DNA of 64,000 nt from a virus (IMGVR_UViG_3300014208_000001:229318-293317), one strand, 5' to 3'. Numbered from the stretch's first letter, positions 1,071 to 63,604 are shown. A program made the numbers and translations. The notes: generated by a model not told the origin, from the sequence alone.

Positions 1071-3509
1071 TTATCTTGGTAATAATGGTGTTGAAACTTG
1101 CTGCCTACAAGGTCCTATAACAGTTCTTTCTGCACCAACACTTATACCACTTAATGCTGCAGTGATAGCTGTTTTAGCAGAATCTGACAATGTAACGCCA
1201 ACTGTGTTCAATGCAGTTACTGTGCCATTAATTATGAGATTAATATCGGACGTTTTAAGAACATATGCATTAACTGTATTAGTTATAAATGTCTTATCGG
1301 TTGTTGTTAACGATACACCAGACGCATTCAATGATGTTAATATGCTATTAACTATAGTATTAATATCGCCAGCAGTTAATGATACAGTAGCAGACGAATC
1401 AACAACATTTGGAGTTGTGAATGTTAATTGATCAGTTTTAGCTTTAATAGCGGTATTTGCACTAATAATTGTCGTTTGATTAGTGGCTGTCCCTAATCCG
1501 CTCTGAATTGCTGTTATTGCCGTAGCATTAGGAATATTAATAAGATCCATTTGGTTACCAGCTTGAGCTGCTGTTTTAGCAGCATCATAAGCCGCAGTTA
1601 ACGCCATAGCATCACCAACTTTAGCTGGAGCATAATTGCCTTGAGCGGTGGCTAACGTAACACCATCAATACCAGTAATAGTATCAAGATCACTCTGAGC
1701 AGTAGCAACAGCAGCCAATACTAATGTTTCATCAGCGATATTATTAGTCGGTAATTTATTATAAATAGCAGTCAAGTATGTAGCATCAGTACTTGTCCAT
1801 GTGGCGCTAACCAAGTCAACCACTTGTGAATATACAGATAACGTAAACGTTGCCGTGCTAATTGTAGCTGAAATATCGCATCTGATCGGTTCAATAGTTG
1901 CTGTGCTTAAGACAGTATATAACCATCTATAAACGCCAGTAGCCGGATTAGATGCGACACCTAAATTAGCCGCCAAACTTCCGGTAGTTTGGCCAGTAAC
2001 CGTTAATGTTGGTGTTGAATCAGCATTTACACTCGAACCATCTGATGCACTATATGTTCTTGCTTCAATAGTATAAATTGTTGAGCCAGAATCTGGTCTC
2101 TCATATTGTCCAACAGTAGTCAATATTATATGTTTAGATGATGAAGTATTTATAGCCAATATATCAGCCTGTGATGCAACAGCACCACCAACATTCAAAT
2201 TATCCAAATATCCAGCTCTAGCAGCGGTCAACCTACCAACTAACGTAGTTAAATCAGATTGAGCAGTAGTAAGAGCACTACTAGTAGCTAATCCACTCTG
2301 AATAGCTGTTACTGCCGTGGCATTTGGAGCACTGATTAGATCCATTTGGTTACCAGCTTTAGCTGGAGCATAATTACCTTGAGCGGTAGCTAACGTAACG
2401 CCATCAGAACCAGTAATAATATCAAGATCACTTTGAGCAGTAGCAATTAACCCAGCAACAACAGACGCGGATGCCGGATCAGATGGTAAATTATCAGTTT
2501 TAGCTTTAATAGCATTAATTTGTGTTAATGTATCATAGTTAACAACAGCCCCGATCCACTCAATGTATCTTGCTTCAGCACTGACTGCACCAGAACATGT
2601 GATCCGCAATGATTCTTCGCTGTCAGTTGATGATACTGAATATGTGAATGTATATCTCCCAGTCGCCGGGCTACTCACTATGGACAAATTAGCAGATCTA
2701 TCTATCCCAGATGCATTAGCAGCTGTAATCGTTGGAGACGCATCAAGATTTACTAATTTACCTTCATTATCGCGGGCCACGACAGTAAATGCAAATAATG
2801 TTGATGATGAATCTGGGATTTCTAATAATGGCGACCCATAAATATTAATCAATGCAGATAGATTATTTAGATTGCTAATTGCTGTTATAACAGATGAAAT
2901 CGATGCATCTAAATTAGCAAGTCGTGTATCACCTAATGCAGTCAAGCCGGCACCAGCGTTGCCGATTCTGGCATAACTATCACCAGTTTGTGGGGTATTG
3001 CTAGTATATGTTGTGAGCGTATCTGTTAGCACAACACCCTGAACTTTGTGTGCTACTGGATCATATCCGGTGTCAGCAAAATCTTTCAGATCGGTTGCTG
3101 ATTGGGAGGCACCACCAATTTGCGTTAAATTAACATCTGGAGCACCCTGATAATCGATCGCATCTAGCTCGAATTCAATTTTCACCGGCAGCATGTTGGC
3201 CGCGCCGTAGTATTCGAGTTCGACCCACATGGCTCCGGCGGCCAGGGCGGCGTCGGGAATGCCGACTTCGTAGCTCCCGGTCACTCCGCCGGACGTGATA
3301 AATCCGCCGCTAGTGAACGTGCCCAGAGTGGCCGTCACGAGTGTGATCGTCGTCCATGAGCTGGCCCCGGCGCGGCGGTAGCGGGCCGCCAGGCTGGCCG
3401 TGTTGTAGACCAGCGACCCCAGCCCGCTCCCATCCGTGGCGGTGGAATCCTGCACGAAGATCGGCAGCATGACGGACGTCGACCCGGCCTTGATCTTGCG
3501 ACGACTCAT
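1071..3509 (-). CDS. Large Ala/Thr/Ser-rich virion-associated protein with two Ig-like beta domains; chimeric gene
   Basis: 812 aa next to the sheath gene; two similar ~100 aa beta-rich domains (..VNLDASPTIT..SPATGRYTFTY and ..VNADSTPTLT..NPATGVYRWLY); first ~110 codons GC-rich, remainder AT-rich. Confidence 0.6.
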   Translation of the reverse strand: MSRRKIKAGSTSVMLPIFVQDSTATDGSGLGSLVYNTASLAARYRRAGASSWTTITLVTATLGTFTSGGFITSGGVTGSYEVGIPDAALAAGAMWVELEYYGAANMLPVKIEFELDAIDYQGAPDVNLTQIGGASQSATDLKDFADTGYDPVAHKVQGVVLTDTLTTYTSNTPQTGDSYARIGNAGAGLTALGDTRLANLDASISSVITAISNLNNLSALINIYGSPLLEIPDSSSTLFAFTVVARDNEGKLVNLDASPTITAANASGIDRSANLSIVSSPATGRYTFTYSVSSTDSEESLRITCSGAVSAEARYIEWIGAVVNYDTLTQINAIKAKTDNLPSDPASASVVAGLIATAQSDLDIITGSDGVTLATAQGNYAPAKAGNQMDLISAPNATAVTAIQSGLATSSALTTAQSDLTTLVGRLTAARAGYLDNLNVGGAVASQADILAINTSSSKHIILTTVGQYERPDSGSTIYTIEARTYSASDGSSVNADSTPTLTVTGQTTGSLAANLGVASNPATGVYRWLYTVLSTATIEPIRCDISATISTATFTLSVYSQVVDLVSATWTSTDATYLTAIYNKLPTNNIADETLVLAAVATAQSDLDTITGIDGVTLATAQGNYAPAKVGDAMALTAAYDAAKTAAQAGNQMDLINIPNATAITAIQSGLGTATNQTTIISANTAIKAKTDQLTFTTPNVVDSSATVSLTAGDINTIVNSILTSLNASGVSLTTTDKTFITNTVNAYVLKTSDINLIINGTVTALNTVGVTLSDSAKTAITAALSGISVGAERTVIGPCRQQVSTPLLPR
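1488..2444 (-). repeat. Intragenic duplication, copies at ~2284-2444 and ~1488-1706
   Basis: ATAQSDLD.ITG.DGVTLATAQGNYAPAK...AGNQMDLI..PNATA.TAIQSGL occurs twice, near-identical in DNA; the second copy has a ~19 aa insertion. Confidence 0.9.
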
Positions 3510-4597
3510 CCCGCGAGCCCTCCGTTGTAGCCGACCCGAATGAGTCCGCCACCGCCGCCGCCCGCCAAAGCCAGCTCAATCACCGTCGCGGTCCCCGAGA
3601 TCGTCGCCCCGCCAGACAGAGCCCCGAGCGAGTAGATCGTCTGGATGTTATTGGGGATCACTGCGTTGCAATTTGGGCCATTCACGAAACACGTTGACCC
3701 ATTCCACGTGTTGACCGCCCGGCCCGTGGAGTCAGTCATTGCCCCTGTAATCATGCCGTTGTTGGTGCTGATTCCATACGCACTAGACGCACTGCCGCCA
3801 GTCGCCGAATTGACCGTGCCGTTGTTGATGCTGACGCCGTGAGCGCCATTTGCTATGCCGCCAGTCGCCGAATCGACCGTGCCGTTGTTGATGTTGACTC
3901 CGAAAGCACTACTTACACTGCCGCCGGTCGCCGAATTGACCGTTCCATTGTTGGTGCCGACTCCGGTGGCACTACTTGCACTGCCACCATAGGCAGCAGT
4001 CACGACGCCGCCGCTGGCATTGGTGCCGACCCCGGTGGCACCACTCGCACTGACGCCATAGGCAGCAGTCACGACGCCGCCGCTGGCATTGGTGCCGACA
4101 CCGTATGCACCATTTGTGGTGCCGCCGTATGCCGCCCCGATGACGCCACCGGAGGCGTTCGTGCCGACCCCGTGACACGACGAGTTGTTGCTGCCGCCGG
4201 TGGCCGAGGCGACGGTCCCATTGTTGGTCAACACCCCCTCTGTCGATGTCGCCGTGCCGCCCTGCACCTCATTGACTGCCCCGCCTGCTGCAATCGTCGT
4301 CACTCCGCGAGACAACGACGCGGTCCCGCCGATGATCTTGCCGCCAATCGTCTGCCCAGATGCCACGGTCGCGATGAGCAGCCCGGTCCCTGCGGTCATC
4401 ACCCACCCGGTCAGCGGGTAGGTTGTCGTCAGGGCGAACGTGAGCTTGCCCGTCGTGCCGGGAGTCTGGACGATCACCCCGGTCTCGGCCGGCACTACAT
4501 CGAAATTCAGCGTGAAGCCGGCCAGTTCAATCGTGTCGCCGTTGGCGACCGTGAGTGCGGAATAATTCGTGTTTGCGACGAGCGTGATCGTGCTCAT
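3506..4597 (-). CDS. Gly/Ser/Thr-rich repeat protein, probably a beta-helical fibre or adhesin-like virion protein
   Basis: 363 aa with 21-23 aa repeats such as GVGTNASGGVVTAAYG and GV.INNGTV.SATGG. Confidence 0.65.
   Translation of the reverse strand: MSTITLVANTNYSALTVANGDTIELAGFTLNFDVVPAETGVIVQTPGTTGKLTFALTTTYPLTGWVMTAGTGLLIATVASGQTIGGKIIGGTASLSRGVTTIAAGGAVNEVQGGTATSTEGVLTNNGTVASATGGSNNSSCHGVGTNASGGVIGAAYGGTTNGAYGVGTNASGGVVTAAYGVSASGATGVGTNASGGVVTAAYGGSASSATGVGTNNGTVNSATGGSVSSAFGVNINNGTVDSATGGIANGAHGVSINNGTVNSATGGSASSAYGISTNNGMITGAMTDSTGRAVNTWNGSTCFVNGPNCNAVIPNNIQTIYSLGALSGGATISGTATVIELALAGGGGGGLIRVGYNGGLAG
3760..4190. repeat. Coding tandem repeats with 63 bp and 69 bp periods
   Basis: gccagtcgccgaat(t/c)gaccgtgccgttgttgatg recurs every 63 bp; aggcagcagtcacgacgccgccgctggcattggtgccgac at 3991 and 4060. 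Confidence 0.9.
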
Positions 4598-5136
4598 TCA
4601 GCCCCCAGCGCCGCACGGACGGCGTCCCAGGTGGCGACCTCGCCGGCGTCGATCGCAGCCACGACGGCGTTGTATCGGTCTGCGAGCTGCTGCCGGACCG
4701 CGTCGGTCGCGATCGTGGCGCGGGCCGCGGCGATGCTCTCCAGCGTCGGCTCGACGGTGATAGAGGACCCGTAGGACTGCCACCGGGGGGCCGTCTGAAT
4801 GCCAATGCCCTGTAGCTTGGCCAGCGTCTCCGCCGGCCAGCTCCCCGCGGCTGCGAGCAGGTCCAGTCGCGACTGGAATCGACTGTCCGACCAATCGAGC
4901 CCCGGACCGAGCAGCAGCGCCCGATAGTCCGCCATCGCCGCGGACTGCCCGGCCGCCGCCAGGAGCGTGGCGGAGACCAGCTCCTGTTCCTCATCGGTCA
5001 GTACCTTGGCCGCCGCGGCGAGCGACTGCTGCACGGTGACGCGGCCGGTCTCGATCACCTCCAGCAGACGATCGAGGGCCTGCTGATCGGTCAGGCCGGC
5101 GTATTCGGCGAGCTGCAGGACGTCGCGGTCGGACAT
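4594..5136 (-). CDS. Hypothetical phage protein (island)
   Basis: 180 aa, GC3-rich, 4-nt overlap with the next gene. Confidence 0.7.
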   Translation of the reverse strand: MSDRDVLQLAEYAGLTDQQALDRLLEVIETGRVTVQQSLAAAAKVLTDEEQELVSATLLAAAGQSAAMADYRALLLGPGLDWSDSRFQSRLDLLAAAGSWPAETLAKLQGIGIQTAPRWQSYGSSITVEPTLESIAAARATIATDAVRQQLADRYNAVVAAIDAGEVATWDAVRAALGAE

Positions 5137-14833: not shown

Positions 14834-15629
14834 GTCTAGGCCCATATAATTTATGGTCGCCTGGCCCAATACAACTAGACGACGCGTAATGTAAAAAACT
14901 GGTAGTTAATATAGCATTATGCGATAAATATAATCCTATTAATCTTTCAAAGACATGTGGTGTCCATAACCCAATATCATCAAGTGTCATTTTGCTAGCT
15001 ACAGTCATCAATTTACCACCAAGTTCAATAAATTCATCATAATTGCACGCAAATTGATGTGCATAAATCATCTGTGGTTTCTTCCTAAGAGCATACTCAT
15101 ATATTATTTTATCATACTTCGCAATAAGATCCCAAACTTTAATATTAGAATCAAATTCACACGTAAACATTGGATCAGAATCTATATTGAACATTGGGTG
15201 TGGTTTCACAACCATATCCTTAAAAGCTTTTTTATGATCTGAATTTATAGTTAATCCTATATTATGATTAGCTATATTATCACTAATATATTTAAATATA
15301 GTTTTAATATTATGATTAGTTCTAATATCGGTATGTAAAAATGCTACGTTACATCCATCAAGTAACTCTTTGGCATGTTTCCATACGGTTAGTATTACTG
15401 ATGATTCAAATAATGCACTATTCCAACTAGCGTACGTCGGATAAAAATCATTGGCTTCAGATAAATTAACATTTATCATTTTAGTTGTGCCGCATGATAT
15501 TTTAATAAATTCAACATCATCTATATTATATGCACTAGGTTCGAATAGTGCTACAGACTGTGGGTGGCACAGAACAAACACTTTAGTCTTCAAATTGGAC
15601 TCCGATACCTTGGATTTTAATTTCAACAA
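14811..15629 (-). CDS. Glycosyltransferase-like protein (DUF4422-like)
   Basis: ESSVI..VWK, FLHTD and VFERLIG motifs; context in the gmd cluster. Confidence 0.5.
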   Translation of the reverse strand: MLKLKSKVSESNLKTKVFVLCHPQSVALFEPSAYNIDDVEFIKISCGTTKMINVNLSEANDFYPTYASWNSALFESSVILTVWKHAKELLDGCNVAFLHTDIRTNHNIKTIFKYISDNIANHNIGLTINSDHKKAFKDMVVKPHPMFNIDSDPMFTCEFDSNIKVWDLIAKYDKIIYEYALRKKPQMIYAHQFACNYDEFIELGGKLMTVASKMTLDDIGLWTPHVFERLIGLYLSHNAILTTSFLHYASSSCIGPGDHKLYGPRPRKYYIA

Positions 15630-16419
15630 AATCTGGGCCAGATAATTTGTAATTAATATAGCTTATTAATTCATTATTATTCCAATGCATATGAGTACCA
15701 AGCAATGTTTTAAATTTATGTGACCATTTTTTGTGTAGCATATGGAATAATTTCCAATATGATGCATCGCTCATGCTGGTTGAATATTTACCATAATGAA
15801 TAATAGGTAAATTCGCAGCATATACACCATATTTTTTAGCTCTGGCTTGTAAACATATATCAGTTCCATAAAAATGGAAACCATTTAAATCTTCATCGAA
15901 TATCAATTTAGTCTTTTTATTCAAAACAAATAAACACTCATCGACACAATGAACTTTCATTGTGTCTTTAATACCATCCCATGATGGTTTGATTTCATTA
16001 TCTGACCCATATACCACTCCAACGGCAACCTGCGAATGTTTGTAACCACCCCATTTACCTATGTTCCTAATCGAGAATTTCCGACCAATACCAGCACATC
16101 CTATTATGCCCCAATCTGGGCATGATTCTATAATATTCACTAATTTGTCAAACCATTTATCAGTAAATTTAACATCTTGGTGTGTGAAGATTAAATTATC
16201 TGATTTAGCACATCTAATGGCCGCATTATATGCTGCCGGCATAGTATAAATATTATTAGTATTTATAATTGGTATGATTTCGCAATCGTATTTTCCTCTA
16301 ACATCGTTCAGTGATTTTATTATACATTCGTTGTATACTTTTTTATTCGACACACATGTTATTATTGAAAATTTAGACATGTGAGCAAAAATTTCTTGGA
16401 GGACAAACAATGGCAACAC
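15583..16419 (-). CDS. GT-A fold glycosyltransferase (GT2-like)
   Basis: AAYN.AI..AK..LIFTHQDV (DxD-like), VDEC.F, FHFYGTDICLQA. Confidence 0.8.
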   Translation of the reverse strand: MLPLFVLQEIFAHMSKFSIITCVSNKKVYNECIIKSLNDVRGKYDCEIIPIINTNNIYTMPAAYNAAIRCAKSDNLIFTHQDVKFTDKWFDKLVNIIESCPDWGIIGCAGIGRKFSIRNIGKWGGYKHSQVAVGVVYGSDNEIKPSWDGIKDTMKVHCVDECLFVLNKKTKLIFDEDLNGFHFYGTDICLQARAKKYGVYAANLPIIHYGKYSTSMSDASYWKLFHMLHKKWSHKFKTLLGTHMHWNNNELISYINYKLSGPDFVEIKIQGIGVQFED

Positions 16420-16634
16420 GGTTAGTGAATATCACGAACATTTCAAATCAAATTGTTCCGATACTTTATGGTACAATCGACGCTGCTAAAAGCAATTCAA
16501 CTGTCGATTATACCAAATCAGGCACATTGATTATATCACCAAGCACTTCAATTGAAATAGAAAAACAGCGTACAGACGCTGGTCAATTAGATCAATTGAA
16601 GAACAAAAAAATAATAACAGTTACTGAACGATAG
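16410..16634 (-). CDS. Small putative virion protein, paralog of 5261-5476
   Basis: Visual alignment; overlaps both neighbours. Confidence 0.55.
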
Positions 16635-17583
16635 GCACAGTATCTAATAATGCTTTGGCTTCATCAGTAAACCCCAAAGCATTAAATAAGTTAGCCAATC
16701 TATGTGCGTATGTATGTGCTGACAAAACATCTTTACGTTGTTCATCTGATTTCTTTTGTATATGATCTGGTGGCATATTAGCCCAATAATGACACATATC
16801 ACTAAATTCAGCCGGATTTCTAGCAATCAATAAAGATGGTATTTGATCTGCCAATGATTGTGTATTGTCATGAACAGCAACAGTGCCACTCATTATAATT
16901 TTAAAAACACGTTCAGGAACATCAATACCATATTGATGAGTATGCGGCTCACTTATACATGGCCCAACCGATCCGGATGACAAAAAATTTGGGACATCAT
17001 TATCGGTTATACCACCGCTACAATGATTATGAGACCATTCGCCCCATCCATATAATTTATACGTTAAAGTACCACCAGTCAATAATGGTAACAAATATGC
17101 ATCTATTGATTTAGATTTATATGCCCATTTGCCGCCAACATAAACTATATCATATTTCTTGTTATTTTCATACTTCTTATTAAACAATGTTATATCAGCT
17201 GCGTTAGCCATTGGAACCCATTTGATACCATATTTCGATTCCCAATATGACCAATAATCGCGATCTTTCTCAAACCCATATCCAAATACAACGTTTGGAT
17301 TTTGACTTATTGTCCATTTAATGCTTTCATTTGATTCATTTATTTGACCAAGATCTTTTTGGCCACATGGATTAACATGAATTGCTATTTTGGTTCTTGA
17401 TTTTGGTATTGGTTGCCTATGCCCAGAACAACCAATATATAAATCTGGGTCATATGCATGCCATGATTCTGGTGACCCATTCCACCTCATCGCATTTATT
17501 TTAGCTGATCGTAATGTATTTAACCACGACTCAGATATATATCCATATGCACCACCAGGCTTGTGTGTTAGTAATACTCTCAT
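16621..17583 (-). CDS. GT-B glycosyltransferase (CgeB / Glyco_trans_1_2-like)
   Basis: YDIVYVGG, KLYGWG, GPCISE....V.ERVFKI..SG, HTY.HR. Confidence 0.75.
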   Translation of the reverse strand: MRVLLTHKPGGAYGYISESWLNTLRSAKINAMRWNGSPESWHAYDPDLYIGCSGHRQPIPKSRTKIAIHVNPCGQKDLGQINESNESIKWTISQNPNVVFGYGFEKDRDYWSYWESKYGIKWVPMANAADITLFNKKYENNKKYDIVYVGGKWAYKSKSIDAYLLPLLTGGTLTYKLYGWGEWSHNHCSGGITDNDVPNFLSSGSVGPCISEPHTHQYGIDVPERVFKIIMSGTVAVHDNTQSLADQIPSLLIARNPAEFSDMCHYWANMPPDHIQKKSDEQRKDVLSAHTYAHRLANLFNALGFTDEAKALLDTVPIVQ

Positions 17584-50657: not shown

Positions 50658-51074
50658 TCAATTATTATAATATGAAGAAACCACTCCATTTTTCACATCA
50701 GCCATTAATTTAAAAAGTAACTCAAACGAATACTCATATATTTGATTTATCCTAACATAATTATCGTCATTAAAACAATACACACCAATAACATCATTAA
50801 TAACAATATTATATTTAAGTGTCATTACAGTTAAAGTTTCACACTGACGATATCTCACGTCAATTAATATATCACTTATATGACTAATCATCTCAGATAA
50901 ATCTGATAATACAATTTGCAATACTTCATCAAATTTTGTATATTTAGAAATATCAAAAATCTGTTCACCAATAGTTATATAATGCACTCTATTTAAATCA
51001 GGAAAAAACATATATATTGGCGATGAAGGCATACTGCTATCGTAGTAATATATAACTTTCCTCTGTTGGTTCAT
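50658..51074 (-). CDS. Hypothetical protein
   Basis: 138 aa ORF. Confidence 0.45.
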   Translation of the reverse strand: MNQQRKVIYYYDSSMPSSPIYMFFPDLNRVHYITIGEQIFDISKYTKFDEVLQIVLSDLSEMISHISDILIDVRYRQCETLTVMTLKYNIVINDVIGVYCFNDDNYVRINQIYEYSFELLFKLMADVKNGVVSSYYNN

Positions 51075-51088
51075 TTTAATCCTTTAAA

Positions 51089-51535
51089 ATGAACGATATT
51101 ACCACGTCATTTGTTCGCGTAAAAGAAAGACGGAGGTTAAACATCAAAAACAACGAATATTACATCACATTTCACACACTATATAAACAAATAACACCAA
51201 CAACATGCGTACCAGTACTACCAAATAAAACATTACCATATATATGTTATACACATAAATGTACCAAATTACATGATATACAAAATCTAATAATAGATGA
51301 TATTTTGACCATGTATATAATAAATCACATTGATGTTTCATTTGAAATTTTATGTGTACTTAATAAATATTTTGGAATATCAATATCAAAAGATCATATA
51401 TCAATATCTTTCATTAATCCACATCCATATGATATTGAAATACTTTTTGTAGATTACACATCAACAGTCCTGTACGAAACGATCTCATCAAACATTTTGG
51501 AGCAAAATCTTGATAAAGTATTACGTATCAAATAA
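51089..51535 (+). CDS. Hypothetical protein, paralog of 51510-51872
   Basis: Shared L.DI.N.I.DDI and I..VDY.....LY/E motifs. Confidence 0.5.
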   Translation: MNDITTSFVRVKERRRLNIKNNEYYITFHTLYKQITPTTCVPVLPNKTLPYICYTHKCTKLHDIQNLIIDDILTMYIINHIDVSFEILCVLNKYFGISISKDHISISFINPHPYDIEILFVDYTSTVLYETISSNILEQNLDKVLRIK

Positions 51536-51872
51536 TTGGAGTTTATCAGTTCTGAAAGGAAATGAATATGTTTTGGTATCTACCAAATTGACACTGGCAC
51601 AAGAAACATTTACATTTCTTAATGATGTTGAATTAAATCACAAATTATTACCAGATATTCATAATATCATCGTAAATGATATTATGAATAAACATCAAAT
51701 TAAATACACAACCAATCATAATAATGTTTTAAACATAATATGTGATAATTATACATTTACATTTGGTGATGACGAATTAATCATTAATAGAACTAGTAGT
51801 GATATTATTATTAAATATGTTGATTATTCAATTGAGAAGTTATATGTTGTTTTAGATGCGCGTGATGAATAG
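51510..51872 (+). CDS. Hypothetical protein, paralog of 51089-51535
   Basis: See previous feature. Confidence 0.5.
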   Translation: MIKYYVSNNWSLSVLKGNEYVLVSTKLTLAQETFTFLNDVELNHKLLPDIHNIIVNDIMNKHQIKYTTNHNNVLNIICDNYTFTFGDDELIINRTSSDIIIKYVDYSIEKLYVVLDARDE

Positions 51873-51899
51873 GAATTGTTTGTTTTTGTGTGTATTTAA

Positions 51900-53060
51900 A
51901 ATGTCGCTGTCTAGGCAGCAGTATAGCAGCATTGTTTGCTGCGATGGCCAATTCGAAAAGGTTGGCTGATTTTGTGTGTGTTTGGGATGACCAGAATCAA
52001 CAGTTGGTATGGCGGGGAAACCCGGCGTTTGGGCATGTGCACGAAGGAGTCGACGTCAAAACACCAAACTCTTCTATTAATTATGAAGCATGCACGGCGT
52101 TATGTCAAGAATTGCAAAATAGGCTTCACTAAGTGATTAATAGAATTTTGAGTTTGGTCTTTTTTCAGCCAACAGCATAAGAAGTCCGCAAAACTGGCTT
52201 ATGGGTAGTTGGGCGTAGGCAACCAATGACGCCTGGATTCTGGTCGCAGACTGCAATGATTGCGATTTGCAAAACATACCAGAGGTAAAACGACCACAGA
52301 CGCAATGGCTTTTCTAGTGGTAAAATTCTGAGGAGTTTTACTAGGTGGCTATGCTCATCACGCATAAGGTGATGATCACGAATGAATCGTGTGGAAATGT
52401 CGGGGTGACCCGAGTCAGTAACGATACTAGAGGTAACGAAACGGCTCTACCGAGTAAGAAGAGGTCCACTGGAAATAGTGACCGGGCCGTAATTCGAAAT
52501 GGATACTCTAGTGGAAACAACCTCAAACAACCCAAAAGCTCACACAAACCATTTGCAGTCCTAGAATCACACAATTTAACGATAAGTTCCACAAACATTG
52601 CAATCAAGCTTGAAATCGCTCTTAGCACAACAGTATATGACACATCGCTCTTAGCACAACAGTTGACACAATCTGCAGTTTGTGGGCCGAAACTTAGGGG
52701 GGATTGTTGAACAATATGTCAACCACAAAATCGAAAAATTTCACACAGTAGGCATACTGGTTAGTGATTTTAATTGATTATGACATATGATTCTGCAATG
52801 GCTAACTCAAAACCTACGAGAACACCTAAGATTCTATGGAGTGTTCGACCGCTGGGTAAGCGGGAAAGATGGGCGTAGGTTCCGGGAGCAGAGTTTGACT
52901 TAACGCAGGCTGCCCAAACAAGTAAGACGTTAAGTGTTTATCTGCGACCCCTCAGCGACTTATTAAAGTGACCAGTTAAACTGAACAGTTGACAACTGCG
53001 AAATTAATAAGATCGTTAACCCAATAATTTCAATCACATTACTTTAATCGGTTAATGTGG
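51900..53060 (+). ncRNA. Candidate large structured non-coding RNA, unassigned (strand uncertain)
   Basis: GC-richer island with no convincing ORF and many perfect hairpins, some with GNRA loops, plus a multibranch stem. Confidence 0.5.
52615..52669. repeat. Direct repeat ATCGCTCTTAGCACAACAGT x2, each followed by TGACAC
   Basis: Identical 20-mers at 52615-52634 and 52644-52663. Confidence 0.9.
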
Positions 53061-53067
53061 GGAGAGG

Positions 53068-54090
53068 ATGGGGGGGCCAGTTTTCTATCCAAAATATCAA
53101 AAGAACAATATGAAAACAAATTCACCAATACCAAACATAGATACAAACGCTACATATCGAAAACTCAAACAACCATACCTAATAAATGGAATACTTTTTG
53201 ATCAATCAGTAAAAGGGACACTAAAATTACAGCACACACTACATGATGAATATTATTATTCAAGTACAAAATATATGTATGCTAACGATTCACAACGTAT
53301 GTGGTATTATAATCCATATGTAGTCGAAATACCAATAGGAGCAGTATATTGCCCTGAACAATATAACCAAATGCCATTTAAAACATCAATAGAAAAATTT
53401 AAATCAACAGAATTATATAAATCATTAATTAAATTGCGAAAATATGAAGATAATGATATAGTCGCCAAATATGCTGATGAATATCATGGTTTATTATATG
53501 AATATTATTATTCAAGATCAGAATTATATATTAGGAGAAGACTACCATGCCAGAAATGGATTACAGAAATAATTATTAAATTATCACTAAATGGAATAGT
53601 GGACGTACAATCCAAAAAAAGCGTACAACAATTAACGCTAGACCCATTAACATCATGCATACAATCGATTAGAGATAAATTATTATCTCGCTTGCTTATT
53701 AAATTTGGCGAAAAAATGGGCGGATTATGTGATTTAGATCCTATATTTAAACCGTGGGAACCAGAATATACTAAAACAGCATTAGGTTTCAGATCTAATA
53801 GTTCAATATATTATTCAGAAAATGTATTTTTATGCGATGTTACTGACAATGTTTTGACATTCAATGATCCAGTGTCTCCTAGGATACATTATGCATTTGA
53901 TGTCGTAACATATACAAATAGAAACATATTTATTATTGTTAATACTAATTTTTCAGAATATTTTATTTCAAAAGCGCGTAATAGATCTGGTTCTATTAAA
54001 TTGATAAATAATGAAAGCTTGCAGAGCATTAAATTATCAATACGTGATAAATCACTCCTTGAACATGCGTTAAGAAGAATATTATTATGA
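53068..54090 (+). CDS. Hypothetical protein
   Basis: 340 aa; probable start MKTNSP near 53110. Confidence 0.55.
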   Translation: MGGPVFYPKYQKNNMKTNSPIPNIDTNATYRKLKQPYLINGILFDQSVKGTLKLQHTLHDEYYYSSTKYMYANDSQRMWYYNPYVVEIPIGAVYCPEQYNQMPFKTSIEKFKSTELYKSLIKLRKYEDNDIVAKYADEYHGLLYEYYYSRSELYIRRRLPCQKWITEIIIKLSLNGIVDVQSKKSVQQLTLDPLTSCIQSIRDKLLSRLLIKFGEKMGGLCDLDPIFKPWEPEYTKTALGFRSNSSIYYSENVFLCDVTDNVLTFNDPVSPRIHYAFDVVTYTNRNIFIIVNTNFSEYFISKARNRSGSIKLINNESLQSIKLSIRDKSLLEHALRRILL

Positions 54091-62040: not shown

Positions 62041-62294
62041 TGGTTATAATCAATCAATTATTAGAGATGTTGTGTAAAATTGCTTTTTTAATAATCTGTT
62101 ATAAATTATATAATATTAAGCAATCTCATATTGGGACCACAGCACTTCAACAGCATCAGATACCAAATATTCCAAAAAGCGATACTTTGAAACCTCAAAA
62201 GCAACAGTGCGTTGAAGAGTTGGCCCCTGAGATGATAGCTCCATATCTTTCAAATCCTCCGAGACCAAGTGGGGGATTTGGGCGGTCGCTATGA
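62040..62294 (+). CDS. Small membrane-anchored protein
   Basis: N-terminal hydrophobic helix, polar Pro-rich tail. Confidence 0.5.
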   Translation: MVIINQLLEMLCKIAFLIICYKLYNIKQSHIGTTALQQHQIPNIPKSDTLKPQKQQCVEELAPEMIAPYLSNPPRPSGGFGRSL

Positions 62295-63604
62295 CTGATC
62301 TGCCGTCATGCATTGTTATTTTAGAGAAAAATGGTAAAAAATATACTAAATATGTGAAACACCCACGTATTACTGATTTAGAAACACCCAAAAAACCAAT
62401 ATTTGATACTGTTATATCACAAGGCACATTAGCTACAACAGTTAAAGTAAATAATAATCACAAGATAACGACAATAGCACGAATTGGCGATTTTGTACTA
62501 GAAGGACCAATCATGACGACTATTGGATTAGATGTTGGAACAAAGACAATTGTATTAGCTTATAAGCATAAAGATGAATCAGTAGGTATTATATATGAAA
62601 TTAATGGTTATTGGTTATTTGAAAGACCATCAACATTTATAGAAAATATGTTAAATGATCCGACTAAAAAGCGATCAGATGGTACGGCACGCCCAGCAAG
62701 ATGGATTAAGCTACCAAGCACAGACCAAATTTGCGTTCTAGGACAAGACGGTGAAGAATTCGCTTATGCGAATAATGGAACATTATTAAGACCAATGGCG
62801 GAAGGTGGTATAACGCCTGATGAAGAGTCTATGACTGTATTATCAAGTATAGTGCATGGATTGCTAGAAACTGCAGAAAAAGATCTAGGATCATTTGATA
62901 AAACTATTAATATTTGTTATTGTACCACAGCACCTGCTGTTAATAAAGAGTCTAATATTGATTATCATAAAAAAGTTTTGGATCTCATAATTACAAATTA
63001 TAAGACTAAATCGAAAATATCGCTTAATAATGTCAGAGAGTCACATGCTATCGTTATTAATGATAGTCCAGATGGAACTGGTATCGGTATATCATGGGGT
63101 GCTGGAACTGTCACAGTATCATATGTAAAATATGGTGTTGAGATTTTCTCATTTTGCTGGGTTGGTAGTGGCGACTGGATCGACACACAAGTTGCGATGA
63201 GACATGGATATGATACTAATGCTTCGTTAGTTAGAAAGAAGACAGCTAGAGAAACTCCAACGACAGTTTGTAAGAGAAAGCATGATATTGATTTAACATT
63301 GAGTAAAGAACCACAGGATAGAGTTGGGTTTGATATTGTTTTACATTATGGAGTATTGATGGATCAGGTTATTAATGGTATCATACACGGATTTAACGAA
63401 CATGCGGTTGATGCAAGAATTGAAGAGGGAATCAACGTTTACATGGCTGGTGGTACGTGCTCACCAAATGGATTCGTTGAGAGATTTGATAGTTGCTTTA
63501 GAACCAAGGATTTACCTTTTGTCCTAGGAACTATAGCAAAATCAGAGTCGCCATTATTTAGTGTTGCACGTGGCTGCTTAAAAGCCGCAGAAATGAACAT
63601 TTAG
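62291..63604 (+). CDS. Actin-like ATPase (MreB/MamK/ParM superfamily)
   Basis: Phosphate-1 IGLDVGTKT, RPM..G, ESHA, phosphate-2 GISWGAGTV, GDWID, adenosine YMAGG, VARG; alternative start 62513. Confidence 0.8.
   Translation: MTDLPSCIVILEKNGKKYTKYVKHPRITDLETPKKPIFDTVISQGTLATTVKVNNNHKITTIARIGDFVLEGPIMTTIGLDVGTKTIVLAYKHKDESVGIIYEINGYWLFERPSTFIENMLNDPTKKRSDGTARPARWIKLPSTDQICVLGQDGEEFAYANNGTLLRPMAEGGITPDEESMTVLSSIVHGLLETAEKDLGSFDKTINICYCTTAPAVNKESNIDYHKKVLDLIITNYKTKSKISLNNVRESHAIVINDSPDGTGIGISWGAGTVTVSYVKYGVEIFSFCWVGSGDWIDTQVAMRHGYDTNASLVRKKTARETPTTVCKRKHDIDLTLSKEPQDRVGFDIVLHYGVLMDQVINGIIHGFNEHAVDARIEEGINVYMAGGTCSPNGFVERFDSCFRTKDLPFVLGTIAKSESPLFSVARGCLKAAEMNI

Follow-up and report, generated by a model that had tools for sequence, protein, structure and literature searches.

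The window analysed here is a 64-kb stretch (record positions 229318-293317) of the 355,825-bp genome of an uncultured jumbo phage (IMGVR_UViG_3300014208_000001), the record of which has direct terminal repeats and a G+C content of 34%. Identity of its SbcD protein to that of the closest cultured phages was at most 29%, and the lineage is therefore an uncultured one. Two further public assemblies of the same phage were identical across the 9 kb compared, so that no usable microdiversity was available. Between two open reading frames (ORFs) on the + strand, at 51510-51872 (120 aa) and 53068/53110-54090, the window contains an element of approximately 1.17 kb (51892-53078, + strand) which is present in single copy and most probably encodes a large non-coding RNA, pseudoknotted and highly structured; to the left of it lie minus-strand genes, including those for a helicase and an SbcD-like nuclease.

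A preliminary description of the sequence had noted a G+C content above background, the lack of a credible ORF and a position at the switch in strand skew, all of which were borne out. The G+C content was 44% in 52001-53000, compared with 28-29% in the adjoining kilobases, the minimum of the cumulative GC skew was located at approximately 51 kb, and the element adjoins the point of divergent transcription. The codon-phase chi-square of the whole stretch was 3.6, relative to a genome median of 30.8 (1188-nt windows, 1.4% of which had lower values). Three inner ORFs, of 121, 100 and 80 aa, had low coding scores that were equal for sense and antisense, and gave no match to Pfam; when back-translated as pseudo-proteins, they likewise had no match in IMG/VR or the JGI metagenomes. 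The longest (52345-52710, + strand), which has a GTG start with GAGGAG 9 nt upstream and was annotated by the gene callers of two public assemblies, had no homologue among 1.84 billion representative proteins, in IMG/VR or in the JGI metagenomes. The stretch 51892-53078 is non-coding, and the annotated 121-aa gene within the RNA is very probably spurious. The element has no terminal repeats, and readings of the retroelement type were removed by the lack of any match to reverse transcriptase (RVT_1) in the whole genome.

Relatives of the element and covariation of its base pairs

Searches with blastn against 50,697 phage records gave no match to the region, nhmmer against 35 SbcD-syntenic loci returned nothing, and BLAST against 35 whole related records returned noise only; an apparent BLAST cluster at 52767-52815 was rejected as AT-rich background. 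The exact 20-mer of the GNRA hairpin was absent from IMG/VR, and a synteny search through the flanking ORFan proteins (340, 148 and 120 aa) failed because no relatives of these were found. The SbcD gene, located 1.7 kb away and with at least 455 homologues, retrieved 35 related jumbo-phage contigs. A covariance model built from the single sequence 52800-52950 (the multibranch junction and the next hairpin) gave a full-length match in one distant relative, at 49.5 bits and E 2e-11 per genome. This match was invisible to BLAST, and 15 of 40 pairs were altered on both sides between these first two sequences. The two-sequence covariance model located the element in 11 more records, and with the model of 13 sequences G005 and two Logan and NCBI contigs were recovered as well, giving a family of at least 16 sequences (this phage, 13 IMG/VR records and two contigs from other assemblies), with core matches in the relatives at E values of 1e-9 to 1e-39.

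The element is present in one copy per genome, in phages with an SbcD identity of about 48-58% to the phage studied here (48-56% for the 13 IMG/VR records). A sequence profile made from 12 relatives, with this phage left out, matched the 64-kb window at two places only, both on the + strand and colinear (52803-53098, E 1e-4; 51903-51971, E 0.03). Within the same SbcD clade, 22 records of more distant phages gave no detection of the element, and the RNA was absent from the short (5.3-kb) Logan contig that carries the closest SbcD relative (76% identity). Core models R2 and R3 gave no match in RaK2 (JQ513383) or 121Q (KM507819), a comparison that used the 3' core model alone and leaves a very distant kinship possible. 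A degenerate core pattern recovered only known members from IMG/VR, and three GTDB matches to a pattern of 20 specified bases (L066, L067 and L068, in metagenome-assembled genomes labelled Melainabacteria, Campylobacterales and Deltaproteobacteria) were rejected as a chance number of matches with no covariance-model score. The family is restricted to a single clade, made up of uncultured jumbo phages whose replication module is T4-like.

The preliminary description had proposed that homologs be collected and checked for covariation, and compensatory changes were found in the core, P1, P2, P4 and the pseudoknot (features as in Table 1). The multibranch junction that it had pointed to (AACCUACG/CGUAGGUU, 52811-52881, enclosing GAACAC/GUGUUC and CCGCU/AGCGG) proved to be the best conserved domain of the family, with compensatory changes in 33 of 38 pairs of the 16-sequence core alignment. 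Standard pairs were formed by 90.8% of the cells in this alignment, relative to 35-44% in controls in which the 3' partners were displaced by 1-3 columns. The paired fraction is inflated by the fitting of covariance-model alignments to the model, an effect of which the slid controls and the first single-sequence match are independent. The observed pairing values were matched by none of 500 column shuffles. Six helices of domain V are backed by covariation, as are hairpins P1 and P2, with compensatory changes in 9 of their 10 pairs. For the long-range helix P4 (12 sequences), duplexes of each strand with its own partner had a mean energy of -14.5 kcal/mol, compared with -8.8 kcal/mol for strands taken from other sequences (matched in 0 of 20000 permutations), and P4 was recovered in the relatives by RNAalifold. 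The strands of the pseudoknot covaried in all 13 sequences tested, the mean duplex energies being -17.9 and -13.7 kcal/mol for own and other partners, respectively (again 0 of 20000 permutations); the variants across the family include CCCCAC/GUGGGG, CCCACC/GGUGGG, CUCCACC/GGUGGAG, CUUCCCC/GGGGAAG and GGCUUCCCC/GGGGGGAGCC, with GGCUGCCC/GGGGGGCC in this phage. The + strand is the folded strand, since G-U or U-G cells numbered 32 and A-C or C-A cells 3. Conservation of the core, P1 and P2, P4 and the pseudoknot shows the element to span approximately 51892-53078, and it is very probably a conserved structured RNA.

The remaining stems listed in the preliminary description were all present: GUAAAA/UUUUAC (52320-52341), CAUCAC/GUGAUG (52356-52374), UCGGG-GUGA-CCCGA (52400-52413), CACGA/UCGUG and CACUG-GAAA-UAGUG. 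Hairpin density itself, which it had taken as a distinguishing sign, failed as such, for GC-matched controls from the same genome fold about equally well, and the folding z-score that it had suggested as a check did not separate the region from these controls. The mean z-score in 200-nt windows across the region was approximately -1.1 on both strands, relative to -0.88 +/- 1.35 in 45 GC-matched windows, and the values for the whole region (-3.6 and -3.7 on the + and - strands, respectively) overlapped those of three GC-matched controls of 1187 nt (-1.0, -3.7 and -4.05). Thermodynamic z-scores were dropped as evidence for an RNA on account of this overlap, and hairpin density and GC content are for the same reason insufficient grounds; it is covariation that supports the RNA reading.

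Besides the inflation of the paired fraction mentioned above, several points weigh against an RNA gene at this locus. The region folds no better than GC-matched pieces of the genome, and by folding energy alone the RNA reading would stand unproven. Covariation, in turn, cannot tell pairing in RNA from pairing in single-stranded DNA. Approximately 45% of the element in this phage (inside P4, and 52284-52512) is without an alignable counterpart, the structure given for these parts being a prediction. The conserved 5' motif begins 20 nt past the upstream stop codon, and the GC-rich relatives show neither a sigma-70 promoter nor an intrinsic terminator beside the element, so that an independent transcript is an assumption. 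Finally, no sequence feature points to the partner or role of the RNA.

Domain architecture and gene neighbourhood

The element measures approximately 0.6-0.95 kb in the relatives. Each of these has a stretch of 0.6-1.3 kb without ORFs, and the core is located close to the 3' end of that stretch. The order of conserved blocks is GUAUUUAA, P1, ACAUAG, P2, P4 enclosing GGUUCUUAGGGUGUUCUU, P5 and CUAAAAGAAACAC, followed by CCAGUGUACCAGCAG, the variable insert, GGAAGCAUCGGCAGUG, the core, a short hairpin, UAGGACGGGGGGAG and, 8-10 nt on, TATA (Table 1). The UAUAG in 51922-51942 corresponds to a family consensus of ACAUAG, in which ATAG is invariant. The interior of P4 is expanded in this phage and includes a 96-nt hairpin at 52063-52158. 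The variable insert carries at least 35 tandem GAACCAGTT units in G002 (L003:11118-11573 and L052:1-197, across contig ends), while other members have unrelated direct repeats of 10-20 nt in this place, among them L012, L056, L057 and L004 with 2-3 repeats of 10-16 nt. At the counterpart of 52954-53017 the relatives carry a short GCGR-CAAGW-YCGC hairpin and then UAACCC, and the G-rich strand of the pseudoknot lies approximately 150 nt downstream of its partner loop.

Table 1. Features of the element in the 64-kb window, with the evidence for each
Feature	Position	Strand	Evidence and remarks
5' motif GUAUUUAA	51892-51899	+	GTATTTA[AG] at the same place in 11 of 13 members; 5' limit of conservation
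Hairpin P1, GCUGU-CUAG-GCAGC	51906-51919	+	Family GACGG...CCGUC; 5 of 5 pairs compensatory
Single-stranded UAUAG, then hairpin P2, GCAGCA-UUGUU-UGCUGC	51922-51942	+	4 of 5 P2 pairs covary
Lineage-specific hairpin with U/G-rich tail, terminator-like	51946-51967	+	Insertion in the alignment; absent in relatives
Domain closed by P4 (GACCAGAAUC, 51989-51998, with GAUUCUGGUC, 52236-52245)	51989-52245	+	Pair probability 1.0; covariation
Hairpin P5, then single-stranded AAAACAUAC (family consensus CUAAAAGAAACAC)	52246-52279	+	Order colinear with relatives
Lineage-specific expansion with several hairpins, including GNRA-capped UCGGG-GUGA-CCCGA	52284-52512	+	Structure predicted; no alignable counterpart
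C/A-rich stretch, predicted unstructured, ending in CACAAUUUAACGAUAAG (family consensus CCAGUGUACCAGCAG)	52513-52586	+	Folding z +2.2; block alignment
Variable insert, in which an exact 20-nt direct repeat occurs twice (52615-52634, 52644-52663)	52587-52696	+	
Hairpin domain with counterpart of conserved GGAAGCAUCGGCAGUGAU, here GGCAUACUGGUUAGUGAU (52750-52769)	52697-52799	+	
Conserved core (domain V): UAACUCAAA, three-way junction (52811-52881), hairpin (52888-52945)	52803-52945	+	Covariance-model matches; covariation
Pseudoknot 5' strand GGCUGCCC, loop of the last domain V hairpin	52908-52915	+	Covaries with the 3' G-rich motif
3' hairpins (52954-53017 and 53034-53060)	52954-53065	+	
Pseudoknot 3' strand GGGGGGCC, inside AGGAUGGGGGGGCC (family consensus UAGGACGGGGGGAG)	53071-53078	+	3' limit of the RNA
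TATA-like block	53085-53089	+	8-10 nt past the G run; TAT invariant in the 13-sequence alignment; CTATAAAT in L012

The 5' motif is the start of the RNA itself or, alternatively, a promoter element specific to the locus. General phage promoters were considered both for the 5' GTATTTAA and for the 3' G-rich motif and were rejected, the latter not being repeated elsewhere in the genome and the 5' motif not being over-represented in the genomes of five relatives. The TATA-like block may be a promoter of the T4-late type for the downstream genes. The G run was rejected as a Shine-Dalgarno sequence, as no conserved start codon follows it. The ATG at 53068 overlaps the conserved motif at the pseudoknot 3' strand, and most relatives have ACG in its place; the next gene therefore more likely starts at 53110; judged from this alignment, the gene (to 54090, + strand) would probably encode 326 aa rather than the 340 aa obtained from 53068. 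The 340-aa protein had no homologues (an ORFan).

Gene order in the relatives is an SbcC-like gene, a helicase gene, a divergent SbcD gene, the RNA and 0-3 small ORFs, continuing with genes for a 527-aa collagen-like protein, a GT2 glycosyltransferase, a 99-aa ORF and an actin-like Volactin protein; DnaE is found further on. The GT2 protein has 440 aa in this phage (57030-58352), and in the relatives its homologue matched Pfam Glycos_transf_2 and the gene two places on matched Volactin (L083:13804-15228, 15533-16927); this fits an actin-like gene at 62291-63604 of the window. Without exception the RNA precedes the 527-aa homologue, which has the same orientation and is 0.2-3 kb away, while the distance between the RNA and SbcD varies from 0.6 to 10 kb. 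The 527-aa gene also occurs in more distant relatives without a detectable RNA. In this phage (47072-58352, compared with L002-L014, L036, L082 and L083) SbcD and two small genes are inverted and the RNA is located upstream of SbcD on the opposite strand, whereas in the relatives SbcD is divergent from the helicase gene and has the same orientation as the RNA.

Elsewhere in the genome, islands with a G+C content of 59-68% were observed at window positions 3000-5000 and at genome positions 1-2800 and 350001-355800, with a peak of 71.5% in a 400-nt window. They could be foreign DNA, an oddity of composition or the product of a chimeric assembly; the minus-strand ORFs of the island at window positions 3000-5000 (1071-3509, 3506-4597 and 4594-5136) had no Pfam match. 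Outside the window, at genome positions 33.9-36.4 kb (L048:1430-3880), seven paralogous ORFs of approximately 114 aa are arranged in tandem with a period of 338-386 nt, their coding strand consisting of nearly all G and T. Three sites in the genome, at 34-35 kb, bear a likeness to TGATTTTGTGTGTGTT, but they belong to this G+T-rich gene array and were dismissed as unrelated.

Candidate roles and rival explanations

The element would be transcribed and would function independently as a folded RNA. Its 5' domain (P1, P2, P4 and P5), which is conserved, leads through a tolerant variable insert with lineage-specific repeats to a conserved 3' core, made up of the three-way junction and a hairpin whose loop forms the pseudoknot with the G-rich tail; the insert would be displayed between the two folded domains. 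Such an RNA may serve as a stable trans-acting scaffold or ribonucleoprotein of the GOLLD/ROOL kind, a role put forward tentatively and given slightly less than an even chance. The trans-acting reading is preferred because of the multi-domain tertiary architecture, because the insert tolerates anything from two 20-nt repeats up to at least 35 9-nt repeats, and because the RNA persists where opposite-strand genes come next. More far-reaching readings are speculative and rather unlikely. In these the family would be a new class of phage RNA with its own biochemical function, either as an RNA-only quaternary assembly or ribonucleoprotein machine working with the replication/recombination module, or in licensing or priming the replication of the approximately 350-kb genome, the repeat insert being the variable, specificity part in both.

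A role in cis at an origin of replication, which the preliminary description had named as its alternative, is improbable. The RNA would then be a pre-primer or R-loop former in the style of ColE1 RNA II or T4 oriF/oriG, with the repeat insert acting as iterons, and its place in a replication/recombination module (SbcC-helicase / SbcD-RNA ... DnaE), next to the divergent-transcription point and the cumulative GC-skew minimum, favours this, as do the lineage-specific direct repeats of the insert and the G run and AT-rich TATA block in which the element ends. The G run, however, covaries with the loop of an RNA hairpin, as expected of a pseudoknot within one molecule, for which a DNA partner is not required. 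The repeats (9-20 nt, in 2 to more than 35 copies) resemble the outcome of slippage in a linker under no constraint and not conserved iterons. GC skew in phages tracks the direction of transcription, the inversion of SbcD in this phage gives the element a relation to the divergence point that differs from that in the relatives, and more distant relatives, which need origins too, lack the element. The constant position ahead of the 527-aa gene, relative to the varying distance to SbcD, would agree with a very long structured 5' leader that controls downstream late genes (527-aa collagen-like protein, GT2) in cis by switching between the pseudoknot and a small G-run hairpin; in some members, such as L058, L005 and L036, the G run can pair instead with a CUUCC tract just downstream, and no terminator follows the element. 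This explanation is nevertheless considered very unlikely: 1-3 unrelated ORFs separate the RNA from the 527-aa gene in this phage and several relatives, the position of the RNA is kept in L012 and L080 though opposite-strand genes come next, which argues against a pure leader, and no start codon is conserved past the G run. The presence of the 527-aa gene in distant relatives without the RNA also speaks against a leader, and 0.6-1.2 kb with multi-domain tertiary pairing far exceeds known bacterial and phage leaders.

That the element is not an RNA at all, and instead a decayed foreign gene, the remnant of a mobile element or a DNA-level element with hairpins in single-stranded DNA, is highly improbable. 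In favour of these readings, the genome is a mosaic with GC-richer islands, the two strands have equal folding z-scores that do not surpass those of controls, and pairing in single-stranded DNA would covary too. Retention across phages with SbcD only 48-58% identical, compensatory changes that extend to a pseudoknot, and the excess of G-U over A-C cells stand against all of these, as do the lack of translated similarity to anything, of terminal repeats and of a reverse transcriptase; a pseudoknotted single-stranded DNA element of 0.6-1.2 kb would be without known precedent.

Comparison with known RNAs

In Rfam 15 nothing matched the 64-kb window at gathering score, no relevant family (GOLLD, ROOL, OLE, raiA, HEARO and others) appeared at E<=10 in 51000-54000, no match was obtained over 126 kb from 12 relatives, and a search at E<=10 in 7 relatives gave one chance-level plastid match only. 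ARAGORN found no tRNA or tmRNA in the window (the 8 tRNAs of the genome lie elsewhere), and the Rfam models for tmRNA and group I/II introns gave no match there, in agreement with the failure of the preliminary description to recognise such motifs. A superficial likeness of GAUUUCGAC to the 5' end of tmRNA was set aside after negative results from ARAGORN and Rfam, and readings of short motifs as tmRNA-like or signal recognition particle (SRP)-like were rejected, as they had no partner elements and no Rfam support. Retron and diversity-generating retroelement (DGR) RNAs were also rejected, RVT_1 being absent and no internal repeat recurring elsewhere in the genome as a template/variable-region pair. 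No description of the RNA was found in the searchable literature. A catalogue of 8,495 viral candidate RNAs consists of short motifs of approximately 67 nt on average (PMC10690425), with which the present family may partly overlap.

The element has the sequence and pairing features by which a large ornate structured non-coding RNA can be recognised operationally (more than approximately 400-500 nt, non-coding, several covarying helices, long-range or tertiary pairing). As far as sequence comparison can tell, it represents a new family that matches none in Rfam 15, among the large structured phage RNAs of so far unexplained role; the proposal of an unclassified large RNA is in this way upheld, with covariation in 16 sequences, a pseudoknot and a long-range helix. 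To our knowledge, very few bacterial or phage RNAs longer than 500 nt are without known function, the main examples being GOLLD, ROOL, OLE and raiA. All of these have turned out to be unusual in structure, ROOL and GOLLD forming RNA-only cages. The family would add to these a further large RNA with a natural size series of approximately 0.58-1.17 kb around one core, the minimal version of approximately 580 nt being at L080:2930-3510. Which parts are dispensable can be read from the expansions and repeat inserts of single lineages, and the covariation-backed pseudoknot and three-way junction offer a firm starting model for probing or cryo-EM. The RNA has a fixed place among the replication genes of a giant-phage clade without a cultured member, and its recognition corrects the annotation of the locus, both for the spurious 121-aa gene and for the probably misplaced start of the next one.

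Like the ColE1/pMB1 RNA II and T4 oriF/oriG transcripts, the RNA would be a structured transcript of several hundred nucleotides located by replication genes and G-rich near its 3' end. Its G run pairs with an RNA loop, however, RNA II is not known to have a pseudoknotted three-way-junction core, and there is no sign here of an antisense regulator, an RNase H site or an origin. The phi29 pRNA has 174 nt and a loop pairing that is intermolecular and essential to function; it resembles the present RNA in being phage-encoded and folded, with pairing through a loop, and no similarity between the two was detected. OLE RNA, a ribonucleoprotein RNA of approximately 600 nt from extremophilic Firmicutes (PMC9723947, PMC12265935), is likewise large and structured with a conserved gene neighbourhood, a feature that suggests protein partners; the RNA described here differs from it in having no Rfam match, in being of phage and not bacterial origin, and in that no homologues of OLE-associated proteins were seen beside it. 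From ROOL and GOLLD, large ornate RNAs that occur in phages, prophages and bacteria, it differs in matching no Rfam model, in lying in a replication module and not in tRNA clusters, and in being restricted to one jumbo-phage clade, in single copy. It is like these two, which have been studied by cryo-EM (PMC12286853), in being longer than 500 nt, multi-domain and backed by covariation, with long-range pairings and variable inserts, and in being phage-borne, as they often are.

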